From NCBI RefSeq assembly GCF_030028105.1, contig NC_092391.1:25145223-25209222 (forward strand): DNA of 64,000 bases, read 5' to 3'. Positions 56,477 through 61,690 of this stretch are shown piece by piece. The position numbers and the translations under genes are program-made. This stretch comes from Mobula birostris (lineage: Eukaryota). The notes under the pieces were generated by a model, which saw only the letters and a list, made by a program, of their open reading frames with translations, had not been told where the DNA came from and searched no databases. Every line of letters begins with the position of its first letter. The first letter of the stretch is position 1.

Positions 56477-56641
56477 TTACCAAGCGCATGACATCTCAGA
56501 TGCAGCATCACTGTTTCTCCGGGTTCTCGCTGGGGACCACCCTATTTCTGAGCGTGTGTCATCTGCGTTTGTTGACTTTGGCCAACGATTGTAGCGCTTG
56601 GTGGATTGTTTATTATTCCAAATCCGAGGTTTTGTGTTCAT
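56477..56641 (-). CDS. Uncharacterised gene, coding exon 3
   Basis: tgtatttcag| 54 codons plus TAA; CpGs retained relative to the flanking intron. Confidence 0.62.
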   Translation of the reverse strand: MNTKPRIWNNKQSTKRYNRWPKSTNADDTRSEIGWSPARTRRNSDAASEMSCAW

Positions 56642-59600
56642 CTGAAATACAATATTACATTAAAAACACTTACACTCCAAGGAAACTTATAAGATGCAGT
56701 CTACTTTGTGACCATAATAACTCTACTGTTCACGTTATACATGCCACACGTCCGCAATGGGGTTGCATTTTTAAGTAGAAAGACAAGTGGGCATTATGAT
56801 GGCCTTGAATATGCTTTCCCACTTAATAAGATCCTCCTGATCCTGTGCCTGACTTCTACATTCCTGCTTAATGCCCATATCCAGTGATTCCCCTTAGGAG
56901 TCTAAGCACCCAGTGATCAAGCAGCTGAGCATTCACACTCATCCAAGAGGAGAGTTCCACAGATTTGCAATCCTCTGAGTAAAGTAGTTTCTCCTCTTCC
57001 TGAGTCTAACTGGTTGACCCATATTCCAAAACTACGCTCCCTGTTTCTAGATGTCACGCAGACTCAATACCTAACCCATCAAGCCCCAGAGAAGTATTAT
57101 ATTTCAATGAAGTCACATCACATTATAGAAAATTCCAGTGACTGCATTATACATACTTAAGATCTAAAAGATACTGTAGGTATTCTGATGTAGTTCAGAC
57201 TTGCTGTGAAGGTATAAGGATTACATTTCTAGGTGGCAGATTTTATCACGTTAACCTCCACTCCCCCCCCGCCTAAAAGTGACACACAACATTCTGTAAT
57301 AGGAGTAAGAGACAAATAGATCGAATATCTCTATATGAATTATGCTAAATGGCGTTTCTATCTTTGTCTACAGAAACACCTGGAGCTTTCTATATAAGCT
57401 TATATGAAAATATTCTATGTAATATTAAAAACGAACAGTTCATGATGTTAACTGTAGATCTGTTAGTGAGGTAGTTCCTCCCGCCCCAGAAGCCTTTGAG
57501 ATTTCTGCAATCCTTCAATTCCAGTCTCTTTCTTTGATCCGTACAGTGTAAGCTATGAAACTTGTCCCCTAATCTCTCTGCCTTAAAGATACTCCATAAA
57601 ACAAAGATCTGACCTAGCTTCAGTCACCCGTCTACTTATATTCTTAGATAGCTTACTGTAAAATTTTTAGGGGACTGAGAAAAGAAATACAAGTTGTAGG
57701 TTGTCTCCATGATCTGCACTACGTCACATTGTGGGAATAGAATGTGATTGGGAGGATAGGCTAAACAAAGTATTTTATAACTTGTACCTCAACTCAAGAC
57801 ATCACAATTTCCTCTAACCTGTATAAACACTGCTGTGTTCATTTGGAGTGTCTCCATTCGTTCGTTCATTCTTGCCAGCCAGTCCCCATGGTCCATGATC
57901 AGTAGCTTCAGGTCATCATTGGATTCCTGGATAAAATCAAAGCCAGTCTCGCTGCTGGGAGATGTGGCCTGAATTGCAGGAACACACAGAACAAGAGTTT
58001 CAAACATAGTGAAGCAAAGTAAAATTTGTCCCTCAACTCTACCACAACAATTTTAGTAGCTGGAGCATCATTCTTAGAGGCTGCAATTCAGCAAAATTAT
58101 CTCCAAGCCCATGAAATAATTTAGAGCGAATCAATGGATTGTCTGTGTTATTTGTCCGAATGGTGGTACGGATGCCGATTCAGCAACACTCAGAAAAGAA
58201 TTGGATCAATAGGAGAAAAGTAAAAGCATCCTCCACCATGTAAAAAAGACCAGGAGTGTGGGAGCTAACGGGATGACTTCCATACAGTTGGCACGGACAA
58301 AGTGAGCAGAATGGAATGCTTCTATACAACAACATGTTACGACTCTAGTCCAATTACTTTCAATACAATGCATGCCTTGTCCCTGTTAGGCTCCCACTTG
58401 AAATCATGCACAGAGAGAGAGAGAGAGAGAGAGGCAGTATATCACCAGATAATGCTTTATTTACTGAAGCTGTTTCAGGGATTAATATTAGTCAAGATCC
58501 CAATGACAGCTCCACTGTGCTTCAAAGTTCAAAGTACATTTTATTATCAGAGTGTGTATATATATCACCACATATAACCCTGAGGTTCATTTCCTTGTGG
58601 GCATACTAAAATCTATTGACGGTAACTACGAGGGGTGATTGATCAGTTCGTGGCCTAAGGTAGAAGATGAGTTATTAACTTCAAACTTCCTGCATTTTCA
58701 CTCAAAGAGTTGAACTGCACGTGCATGTAACGAGAGCCGTACAGCTCATCTCCTTCTACCTTAGGCCACGAACTTATCAATCACCCCTGCTATGGACCAC
58801 CTGGAGGTTCAAGGTGCTCTCATTACATGCACGTGCAGTTCAACACTTTGAGTGATAATGCAGAAAGTTTGAAGTTAATAACTCATCTCCTTCTACCTCA
58901 GGCCACAAAGTTATCAATTACCCCTGCTGTGGACCACTTCTACAAAGAAGGGATCTGTATGCTCCATGACCGCTGGACTAAGTGTGTACATGTAGGAGGG
59001 GACTATGTTGAAAAATAAATGTGCTAGGTTTTCTAAAATTGACTTCTTCTACCTTAGGCCACGAACTTATCTATCACCCCTCATAAAATGAGATCAGTGA
59101 AAGATCAATTGGAATGCAGAAGACAACAAACTGTGAATGTAAATATATGAGTAAATAAATAGCAATAAATAACAAGAACATGAAATAACAAGATAAAGAG
59201 AATTAAAGTGAGAGCGTTGGTTGTGGGAACATCTCAATGGATGGGCAAGGGAGCGTAGTTATTCTCCTTTGTTCAAGAGCCTTACAGTTGTGGGTACTAA
59301 CTGTTCTTGAACCTGATGGTGCGAGTCTTGAGGCACTCATACTTTCTACCTGAAGGCAGCAGTGAGAAAAGAGCTTGGCCTGGGTGGTGAGGATCTCTGA
59401 TGATGGATGCTGCTTTTCTATGACAGCATTTCATGTAGATGTGCTCAATGGTTGGGAGGGCTTTACCCATGATGTACTGGGCCGAATCCACTACCTTTTA
59501 TTGGATTTTCCATTCAAATGCATTGGTGTTTCTATACGAAGCCATGATGCAGCCAGACTAATGCAGTGTATCCTTTGCTTCCACCTGAAAAGGCACTTCA

Positions 59601-60308
59601 GCTTAATGCTTTACTGAAAATGGGAAGCGTAGGAGGATCTCAGCTTAATGTCATTTTGAAGAATGGGGGATTGATCTGGGTTTGTACTGGTGTATTGAAG
59701 GCCCTGGGGAGGGGCTTGAACCCCAGATATACTGACTTGAGTAAGTATGCAACTGATGCTAAATTGACCCCAACTTCAGTTATTCCTACCCAACTAGAGG
59801 AGAAGAGTAGTGACAATATGTCCCCTAGCTATATTAACATCTCTCAATAGAGGAAGGAATCAAATTCATACTTTTGGAATGGTGTGATGGATTTTGACCT
59901 CCCCTACCACAGGAGTGTAGCAAACCGTGGTAAGTAATTGAAAGGAAAATAAAGTACTGTATTGACTGGCTGGTGGCGTAGTGGCATCAGCGCCGGACTT
60001 CGGAGCGAAGGCTCCTGAGTTCAAATGCAGCCGGCTCCCTTGCACGCTTTCCATCCGTGCTGGGTTGAGCGTTGAGCTCAGAATAATACATTGAGCGTAA
60101 AAATAAGAAAGCCTGCTAAAAAAACCTGTCATGACGGCGTCCCGATGACTCCACCCTAAGGGCTTTCTTCAAATAAAATACGTGTTACCTCAGCGATGGA
60201 AAGTCTCAAGTGCTCCAGTTTGTCAATTTGAATCCTTAGGCGATCCTCCAGATCTTTCATCAGAGCCAAGTTTTCATCAGTCTTCAGATTTTCTCTCTGT
60301 GACATCAT
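56477..60308 (-). CDS. Uncharacterised 144-aa protein, three coding exons
   Basis: complement join(60189..60308,57819..57968,56477..56641), all phase 0 with canonical GT-AG. MMSQRENLKTDENLALMKDLEDRLRIQIDKLEHLRLSIAE|ATSPSSETGFDFIQESNDDLKLLIMDHGDWLARMNERMETLQMNTAVFIQ|MNTKPRIWNNKQSTKRYNRWPKSTNADDTRSEIGWSPARTRRNSDAASEMSCAW*. Confidence 0.7.
57819..57968 (-). CDS. Uncharacterised gene, coding exon 2
   Basis: ttcctgcaattcag| 150 nt open |gttaga. Confidence 0.7.
58520..59560 (-). mobile_element. Rex1/Babar LINE 3' fragment interrupted by a mariner derivative
   Basis: DSAQYIMGKALPTIEHIY...[20 protein letters not shown]; matches 3900-4410. Confidence 0.85.
58629..59083 (+). mobile_element. Mariner-derived non-autonomous element
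   Basis: TA-CGAGGGGTGATTGATCAGTTCGTGGCCTAAGGTAGAAG TIR and its reverse complement ending ...CCCCTCA-TA; retains the transposase C-terminus FYKEGICMLHDRWTKCVHVGGDYVEK*. Confidence 0.88.
59964..60170 (+). mobile_element. tRNA-derived SINE
   Basis: A box TGGCGTAGTGG and B box GAGTTCAAAT; flanking aaataaagtac / aaataaaatac. Confidence 0.75.
60189..60308 (-). CDS. Uncharacterised gene, coding exon 1
   Basis: Acceptor ttacttag at 60334-33, ATG at 60308, donor GAG|gtaaca; heptad-like Leu/Ile pattern. Confidence 0.68.
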
Positions 60309-60369
60309 GATGACCCTGCTATGGGCTATAATCTAAGTAATTAGATTTTATGTTGGATTAGCTACAATT

Positions 60370-60990
60370 AGTTCAAATAAGTTTTTGATTCAAAGGCCAC
60401 TCCATTTTCCTCATCAGAACTTTTAATCAGATCTATTCCATATTTATCACCTCTGTTCTCAATACCTTGCCTCCTACCTAGTACAAAGATAGGGTTCTCC
60501 TCTTTAATGTTTCATGGATCATCCTCTATAATTTGAGCTATCTTCTCTCCTGTCTACGCTATCCAAAAGAGGCTGTTCCTCCACAATGCTCTGGCTCAAC
60601 TCCAAACCTGCTTCTGCTCCAGAGCATCCTGTCTTTTTACATCTTCCCTTCCGCCATTCAGGGATCCAAACAGGAACTAGCGGGGGTGGGGGGGGGGGTG
60701 TTGCTGTGGTCGGCATGGACCAGGTGAAGTAATAGCCCAATAATACCTCTTCCAGTTTAGTATGTTGCATTTGGTATTCACAGTGCAGCCTTCTCTACCG
60801 AAGGCCACAGAGTAGTGAGGTCATGTATCATAGAAACACATTCTTCAGTTCCATGCTGACCTTCAGTCACCCACTTACAGTAATCTTACGAGTCCTGACG
60901 AAGGGTCTCCGCTCGAAATGTCGAGTGTACCTCTTCCTATAGATGCTGCCTGGCCTGCTGCGTTCACCAGCACTTTTTGTGTGTGTTACT
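60370..60990 (+). mobile_element. Penelope remnant plus pLTR with hammerhead-like core (60892-60925)
   Basis: SSSLVCCIWYSQCSLLY resembles a decayed GIY-YIG N-terminal part; gtc-CTGACGA-agggtctccgctc-GAAA-tgtcgag followed by the shared gatgctgcctggcctgctgcgttcaccagca. Confidence 0.65.
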
Positions 60991-61379
60991 CCCATTATAT
61001 TCTCCCCCCCCCCCCATTCCCATCAGCTCATAGATTCTACTCTTCAACTACACTAGGGACAATTTACAATGGAAAATTAATCTTCCAGTCAGCATCTTGG
61101 ATCAGGTCACTAGGTCTTTGAGGAGAGAAAGAGGAGTTTTAGATCTTGGAGCGGACTCACAGCTGGAGGCTGGAGGGAATTTTCTGGTTACAGTTATTTG
61201 AACGTTGGAAACATTAAAAACACTGAATACAATTGTTGGTAGAAATACATAATAAAAACCGATAATGTTGTAAATTCTTGGCTTTAGTGGAAAGAGAATT
61301 AGAGTTCACATTTAAGGCGAAGCGCCTTTTACATTCAAACACAGCCTGATCTACTAAGTATTTACAGCATTTTCCGTTT

Positions 61380-61690
61380 ACTTCACCCGAATGAAAGTCG
61401 CGTTGACAAGTCTTTTACCTTATGTTTTCCAGGCAGAAAACTTCAACAACACACTCACCTGCTGGGGAAAGGAAAGGGGACTATTCTTCTAAAAGAACTA
61501 GCTACAAGATGTAGTCCTGGGTTTATTTGACCGCCTGTCTTTAACTTGTTCGCTGCTATTACTGCAAGTTGGGTCTCCTCGGGGAATGTGAAGAATTCTG
61601 CCTCGATTGGTATCAGAAAAGAGCCGGGTTGGATTCTCGGAACCGGATTGAAATGTTTCGACAGGTGATCGGGATATAATTCTGAATCGA
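61380..61690. promoter_or_regulatory. Putative promoter and non-coding first exon of the uncharacterised gene
   Basis: CpG-enriched patch; strong - strand donor CAG|gtgagt at 61459/61458 with an in-frame stop upstream. Confidence 0.5.

Follow-up and report, generated by a model that had tools for sequence, protein, structure and literature searches.

It is reportedly rare for an old, strongly conserved gene to be lost completely at one of the major vertebrate transitions, with nine genes in one screen (PMC6871517). Among the described cases are Ag1, Ras-dva, sod4, and c-answer, which fishes and amphibians have retained but amniotes or warm-blooded vertebrates have lost (PMC6871517 and PMC10416458), and the earlier ones, Ag1, Ras-dva, and sod4, turned out to act in regeneration. 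Here we describe a gene in a 64,000-nucleotide (nt) stretch of the Mobula birostris genome (contig NC_092391.1, positions 25,145,223 to 25,209,222; hereafter the window), which encodes a protein of 144 amino acids on the minus strand. If its loss from amniotes holds, the gene has a distribution similar to those of the four genes above and would be a further example of this rare kind of loss; those genes, however, encode secreted, GTPase, enzyme, or membrane proteins, whereas the present protein is probably soluble and has no known family.

The closest relatives in databases are uncharacterized entries of Rhinoraja (LOC144608328, XP_078282099), Cetorhinus (LOC144685547), Callorhinchus (LOC103184639), Latimeria (LOC106702816), Xenopus tropicalis (LOC116409535), and Oreochromis (LOC100692291), which are orthologues with a full-length match and the same tail and exist as gene models only, with no name or Pfam family. 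An earlier note on this DNA, made from the letters alone, had recognized no family; this stands insofar as no named Pfam family was found, but the orthologues were already annotated as uncharacterized LOC genes. A literature search by gene IDs, accessions, short motifs, and topics, which covered few subscription journals, found no paper on the family, which is ancient, apparently single copy, and unstudied. Likeness to described systems is partial. The shape of residues 1 to 92 is shared with the ESCRT-III core, bMERB, and HR1 (Z values of 9.4 to 11.1), but at 7 to 13% identity and with no Foldseek or Pfam match; the coiled coil of Nup58/p45 and Nup49 shares a language-model likeness with one teleost member only (score, 0.88), which lacks phenylalanine-glycine (FG) repeats; and EDF1/MBF1 has nothing in common with the protein other than a database label and a few fused gene models, without any sequence relation.

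Exon structure and transcript evidence

The minus-strand open reading frame belongs, with near certainty, to a genuine spliced gene of four exons, the first of which is non-coding. The three coding exons (60308 to 60189, 120 nt; 57968 to 57819, 150 nt; 56641 to 56477, 165 nt including the stop) are all flanked by AG and GT and join in phase 0 into 435 nt, or 144 amino acids, with zero internal stops, as the earlier note had laid them out. There are tandem ATGs at 60308 and 60305, and the second Met corresponds to the start of the orthologues, giving 143 amino acids. The features of the gene are as follows (UTR, untranslated region).

61459..61664, minus strand: non-coding exon 0, a piece of X5 contig 18 with the joint 60331/61459 and a GT donor; 5' end not fixed
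60189..60332, minus strand: exon 1, with 24 nt of 5' UTR, both ATGs, and most of helix 1 (40 codons)
57819..57968, minus strand: exon 2, 50 codons, with the loop and helix 2; contig pieces in X1, X5, and X12
56477..56641, minus strand: coding part of exon 3, 54 codons plus TAA, with the basic linker and the conserved tail; intron position the same in the teleost locus L001
56564..56623, minus strand: basic, aromatic, variable linker, residues 96 to 115 of 143; predicted to be disordered
56480..56563, minus strand: conserved C-terminal tail, residues 116 to 143, with RRxS, serines 133, 137, and 140, and CxW abutting the stop

The evidence for splicing comes from contigs of 4 public runs (of 14 listed; X1, X5, X9, and X12), which were placed on positions 52000 to 64000; these runs were only guessed to be RNA; none is recorded as such or carries a tissue label. 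The joint 56641/57819 (CT..AC), one of two junctions that the earlier note had proposed to check, is present in three of the four runs (X1, X5, and X9, from three organisms and three studies), and the bin from 57213 to 57613 of the intron between exons 2 and 3 has a depth of 0 in X1 and X5, which fits an RNA origin. The joint 60331/61459 is listed in X5, indicating that donor 61459, predicted earlier for a non-coding first exon, is in use; the exon 1 acceptor lies at 60333/60332. The other proposed junction, 57968/60189, is absent among the joints listed for the four runs, but in X5 contig 18 the exon 2 and exon 0 pieces are separated by exactly 145 letters, equal to base 57968 plus exon 1. 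The layout of this contig, with exon 0 (61664 to 61459) followed by the 145-letter stretch, exon 2, and exon 3, shows that the non-coding first exon is real. A contig piece of X9 spans 61459 to 61911, that is, beyond 61664. No ATG occurs in the spliced 5' leader (230 nt seen), and an Rfam scan of 53500 to 64000 gave zero matches. Contigs of X1 cover the first two introns (57942 to 61462; depth, 27 to 40) and leave the last one almost uncovered, which suggests that the 5' introns are spliced slowly or retained in that run.

Orthologues, conserved tail, and predicted fold

Exon 2 alone matched a Logan protein together with shark, paddlefish, and sturgeon entries. A profile search gave 111 matches among 2368 candidates, an amphibian-weighted profile gave 120 matches from 8000 scored candidates, and HMMER against 1.84 billion representatives gave 54 matches, all of them recognizable family members or fragments. 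The resulting homologue set holds 222 distinct proteins, for which 24 clusters were opened for member names; 130 are named as jawed vertebrates (99 teleost, 11 amphibian, 10 other ray-finned, 7 cartilaginous, and 3 coelacanth, grouped by source names), and the 91 unnamed homologues always have their best match in fish, coelacanth, or amphibian groups. Identity to the 143 residues of the window protein is 94% in skates, 85 to 87% in sharks, and 71% in the chimaera, followed by 78% in paddlefish, 69% in coelacanth, 58% in a newt, 53 to 57% in three teleost rows, and 46 to 55% in two frogs; the bichir is also in the range, with an identity within the 46 to 78% band. The earlier suggestion of a lineage-restricted gene therefore falls, since the family spans chimaera to teleosts and frogs. 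It is small and apparently single copy, and its members include Xenopus and many teleost proteins. In a tree of 47 rows, the order roughly follows the species tree without duplicate clades, and the window protein groups with skates (support, 100/99). Zero invertebrate names occur among the 131 named homologues, and zero of 60 candidate stretches in viral contigs and zero of 43 in prokaryote genomes are related. The family probably arose with the jawed vertebrates. An entry named Lampetra planeri (P0066, CAM9139840.1) was considered as a cyclostome copy and rejected; it nests among percomorphs (97/87) and is probably a teleost contaminant.

Of 167 candidate stretches in metagenome contigs, one is related, the teleost-like locus L001, which has the same three phase-0 coding exons; its second intron falls at the matching residue, and an AG immediately precedes its ATG. 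Ray and L001 differ at 49, 42, and 85 first, second, and third codon positions, respectively, over 135 codons, and at 6, 3, and 17 over the last 28 codons, while 41 of the 74 identical residues carry a silent change. This excess at third positions indicates that the gene is under purifying selection. The interhelix loop was remodeled by splice-site sliding (window 57927 and 60189; L001 374 and 481): the teleost donor lies seven codons further on, and the teleost acceptor is at the position of an in-frame CAG 42 nt inside ray exon 2. The same seven residues distinguish isoforms in paddlefish. Five frog models (P0032, P0103, P0105, P0127, and P0129) have N-terminal extensions of 25 to 85 residues, and the frog branches are longer than those of sharks.

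Conservation peaks in the last 28 residues, above the helices, a point that the earlier note overlooked, and the tail ends at a fixed CxW-stop. In 157 of the 222 proteins, picked on the hairpin alone, the CxW end is found in 150, the pattern R..S..S..SCxW in 148, and RRxS in 146; the nine that miss the full pattern comprise three EDF1 fusions, three models with foreign ends, and three true variants. The mean majority-residue frequency is 0.88 in the tail, 0.81 in helix 1, 0.75 in helix 2, and 0.55 in the linker, as calculated on 150 of the 222 proteins that had been filtered on their last residues, which is why the motif count was redone without the filter on the 157. The near-invariant 14-residue end is a ready bait for finding a binding partner.

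AlphaFold, run with a 74-row alignment, predicts helices at residues 2 to 41, 50 to 54, and 57 to 92, with helix blocks mostly at a predicted local distance difference test (pLDDT) score of >90, while residues 96 to 130 and 136 to 143 have a pLDDT of <50; the hairpin of a catfish member, in a second AlphaFold run, is modeled with helices at 2 to 43 and 49 to 80 (mean pLDDT, 87.6). The protein is thus predicted to be a two-helix hairpin followed by a disordered segment at residues 96 to 143, in agreement with the two N-terminal helices and disordered tail of the earlier note, and the basic region with an RRNS site that it described is present. No hydrophobic segment is found (the maximum 19-residue hydropathy is 0.07). 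Residues 1 to 92 are acidic (10 K+R versus 18 D+E), and the linker has a median net charge of +6 over residues 93 to 115. Histidines 32 and 66 (of 143), which lie in different helices (exons 1 and 2), are conserved in 98% of the 150 proteins, with Asp28, Glu31, and Trp69 nearby in sequence; the two histidines may face each other in the predicted hairpin and form a binding or metal site.

Pfam was scanned with single exons, with alignments of 16 and 74 members, and with 14 selected members, and only weak coiled-coil matches below the curated cutoffs resulted, and Foldseek, which the earlier note had proposed along with structure prediction, returned zero matches at an E value of ≤0.001 with either model. 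Matches to GCN4, flagellin, and apolipoprotein coiled coils in a PDB sequence search (best E value, 0.005 to 0.04) were rejected as compositional. VIA-align gave tied generic hairpins with Z values of about 9 to 11 among the matches listed, values that the stated background for long helices covers. ESCRT-III CHMP4B (4abm_A) is one of them (Z values of 10.6 and 11.1; 7 to 11% identity), tied with unrelated hairpins. ESCRT-III/Snf7 proteins have a basic N-terminal half followed by further helices; here, residues 1 to 92 are acidic, no helix is predicted after residue 92, and there is no Snf7 among the Pfam matches listed. A homodimer prediction for residues 5 to 97 scored 0.24 against a mark of 0.32 and was not used either way.

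Candidate adaptor function, its rivals, and probable loss in amniotes

The best overall explanation is, in our view, a four-exon jawed-vertebrate gene encoding a small soluble adaptor, to which we give a probability of roughly 0.4. The mechanism that goes with it is likewise tentative. One partner would be bound by the predicted helical hairpin, and the near-invariant, probably phosphorylated C-terminal tail would dock on a second. By the consensus rules for protein kinase A (PKA), casein kinase 1 (CK1), and glycogen synthase kinase 3 (GSK3), a basophilic kinase of the PKA type would phosphorylate RRxS133, S137 and S140 could be read in relay as D-x-x-S and pS-x-x-S sites of the CK1 type, and the i+4 series 125/129/133/137 would suit a kinase of the GSK3 type; the phosphate load might then switch binding of the free C terminus, and the basic linker might help bring the protein to acidic surfaces. 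Because a disordered segment is more conserved than the fold and the stop is fixed after Trp, a linear motif that needs a free C terminus is indicated, and because the serine spacing fits a basophilic site with a CK1/GSK3 relay and the tail is so conserved, a soluble adaptor is favored over the rivals below.

More speculatively, the protein could be the founding member of a signaling-adaptor family dating from the origin of jawed vertebrates, essentially single copy, with a nearly invariant, phospho-switched docking motif of a new class (SCxW at the free end), which changed its neighbours at least twice and was discarded at the amniote transition. It would then point to a pathway serving a trait of anamniotes, for instance the lateral line, aquatic eggs, or regeneration. 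We regard this wider reading as doubtful; under it, the repeated change of neighbours means that synteny-based screens for gene loss would have missed the gene. In its boldest form, the family would derive from the Nup58 coiled coil.

Several points weigh against the adaptor reading and what is built on it. The mechanism is drawn from anatomy and conservation. The i+4 serine series is complete in 126 of 150 proteins, and in frogs S/T is lacking at position 129 in 10 of 10 checked and at position 125 in 6 of 10; with the series incomplete and largely lost in frogs, only serines 133, 137, and 140 are general. To our knowledge, the terminal CxW belongs to no motif class that can be named with confidence. 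The homologue set is teleost heavy (99 of the 130 named) and redundant, so that its counts are not independent. Of the four coding differences listed for organism B, the source of run X5, three change the amino acid, though at variable positions. Two more points concern the loss from amniotes: names of zebrafish, gar, lungfish, and caecilian are also absent from the homologue rows, and the frog gene ID is absent from eight supplements of PMC10416458, a study of frog genes lost in placentals. The omission may reflect lost synteny, or its authors may have found a placental orthologue.

The loss itself is probable. Zero amniote names occur among the 131 named homologues, which come from protein collections only, not genomes, and the amphibian-weighted profile likewise found no amniote; the loss in mammals raised as a possibility in the earlier note is in keeping with absence from protein databases, but the gap is wider and takes in all amniotes. 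Since the four fish and amphibian groups named above also lack named rows and only 24 clusters were opened, the loss is likely, not proven. Alternatively, the gene could persist in some amniotes, unannotated or too diverged, so that the gap would be a database artefact, as the same missing groups, the already faster evolution of the frog copies, and the ease with which annotation overlooks small genes with a non-coding first exon would allow; this is the less likely case, given that the 8000 candidates scored with the amphibian-weighted profile yielded no amniote, that the searched collection takes in Logan transcript assemblies, and that the exhaustive HMMER scan has no tail of weak full-length matches.

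Turning to function, the hairpin could be a small-GTPase effector module of the HR1 or bMERB kind, with the basic linker and the invariant Cys141, if palmitoylated, anchoring it to the membrane and phosphorylation releasing it. HR1 domains bind GTPases of the Rho family, and bMERB domains those of the Rab8 family. The teleost hairpin aligns with MICAL1 bMERB (9g0c_A; Z value of 10.7, root mean square deviation [RMSD] of 1.2, 80 aligned residues) and with PKN HR1 (1cxz_B; Z value of 9.4, RMSD of 0.8, 70 aligned residues), and the linker charge and the Cys at –2 in 150 of 157 proteins would suit anchoring. However, these Z values lie within the background for long helices and are tied with many unrelated hairpins at 9 and 7% identity, respectively, the HR1 arrangement being generic; neither bMERB nor HR1 (PF02185) is among the Pfam rows listed (25 of 41 families in one scan); CxW differs from a CaaX box; and ray-finned fishes do not share the location next to PKN and a DHHC gene. 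This function is therefore rather unlikely. An origin from the HR1 repeat of the neighbouring PKN gene was also tried and rejected, with an hhalign probability of 0.2%, while the repeat itself matches HR1 at an E value of 2.8e-15.

A slightly poorer prospect is that the tail regulates a kinase or phosphatase, either as a phospho-dependent inhibitor or in a substrate-like manner, comparable to ENSA/ARPP19 and DARPP-32, with the hairpin serving only to localize it. The tail has the profile of such a regulator, being short, Ser-rich, disordered, near-invariant, and better conserved than the folded part, but neither ENSA/ARPP19 nor DARPP-32 was matched in Pfam or PDB sequences, and regulators of this kind need no fixed C-terminal residue, whereas the stop position here is fixed.

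Less probable again is distant descent from the coiled-coil region of Nup58/Nup49; the protein, lacking FG repeats, would then act at the Nup62 complex or compete within it. In the ESM Atlas, the top match of the teleost member P0062 is a Nup58-type cluster (PF15967 on 65% of its members; 176 of 256 features), and 9 of its 10 best family-bearing matches fall in the Nup58 family or clan; with a score below 0.9 and a recognition value of 1981 (<2300), this is only a lead by the tool's own grading, and the same search with the ray protein P0001 returned unrelated clusters. PF15967 and PF21121 match 0 of 14 members at an E value of ≤10 (HMMER filters drop weak matches), PDB sequence searches returned no Nup58 chain, and the stand-alone sequences read contain no FG repeats. 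No Nup58 chain is among the 50 VIA-align matches listed, which excludes nothing.

Genomic neighbours, EDF1 label, and 3' end

The genomic neighbours of the gene differ by lineage. In the window, the first coding exon of a gene for a DHHC palmitoyltransferase lies 2.4 kb downstream of the stop codon on the same strand (DHHC domain PF01529 at 48349 to 48549), and the plus strand carries a kinase gene with an HR1 repeat; following the earlier note, we take these to be ZDHHC12 and PKN3. In ray-finned fishes, four gene models fuse the gene to EDF1 (P0004, P0117, P0134, and P0196), and several databases name the stand-alone teleost protein an "EDF1 isoform"; we infer that its position there is immediately upstream of edf1. 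No EDF1 match occurs in the window, the fused models match it only at the three exons, and MBF1 (PF08523) and HTH_3 (PF01381) are listed only for the fused P0004, P0117, and P0134 and are absent from stand-alone members. The label is thus an annotation error, in that many teleost "EDF1 isoforms" are this unrelated protein. In X. tropicalis, the accession numbers flanking XP_031754059 are placed on chromosome 3, at 28.3 and 49.6 Mb (PMC10416458, Table S1), which suggests a third genomic location; this could explain the omission of the gene from the synteny-dependent screen of that source.

A chance or non-functional reading frame, or one that belongs to an isoform of a neighbouring gene (ZDHHC12 in the window, EDF1 in teleosts), can be set aside: one contig does continue from the gene into ZDHHC12, and the teleost labels and fused models point the same way, but the gene has its own stop and a long 3' UTR, is evidently under purifying selection, has stand-alone proteins in every lineage with neighbours that vary, and shares neither MBF1 nor HTH_3 in its stand-alone forms.

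Downstream of the coding exons, two further features were delimited.

54948..56476, minus strand: 3' UTR, at least 1.5 kb; X1 contig 2 covers 54948 to 56641; contigs cannot fix the true end
54005..54101, minus strand: first coding exon of the DHHC palmitoyltransferase gene, with the ATG at 54101 and a GT donor at 54004

The AATAAA at 55585 to 55580, proposed in the earlier note as the poly(A) signal, exists but is not the sole end, as contigs extend past it to 54948 in X1 and 54005 in X5. Further candidate signals are AATAAA at 55165 and AGTAAA at 54971, and the X1 contig ends 18 nt after the latter. At the far edge of the window, a minus-strand reading frame (1 to 414) runs off the window start and encodes a hydrophobic, signal-like stretch followed by CxxC; it resembles a CULT/yippee-type domain but has no Pfam match at an E value of ≤0.001.

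Contigs of X5 and X9 exit the covered stretch at 54005. A single X5 contig (organism B) runs from the 3' UTR of the gene to 54005 and continues for 3.3 kb beyond the covered stretch, and X1 has a gap near 54776 to 54869. Read-through into the DHHC gene is possible, but this is only a hint, as a two-gene contig is not proof of one transcript; the "EDF1 isoform" labels of teleosts hint at the same read-through habit with another neighbour. In the same X5 contig, a change at 55163 destroys the AATAAA at 55165 to 55160, whereas X1 retains the signal.

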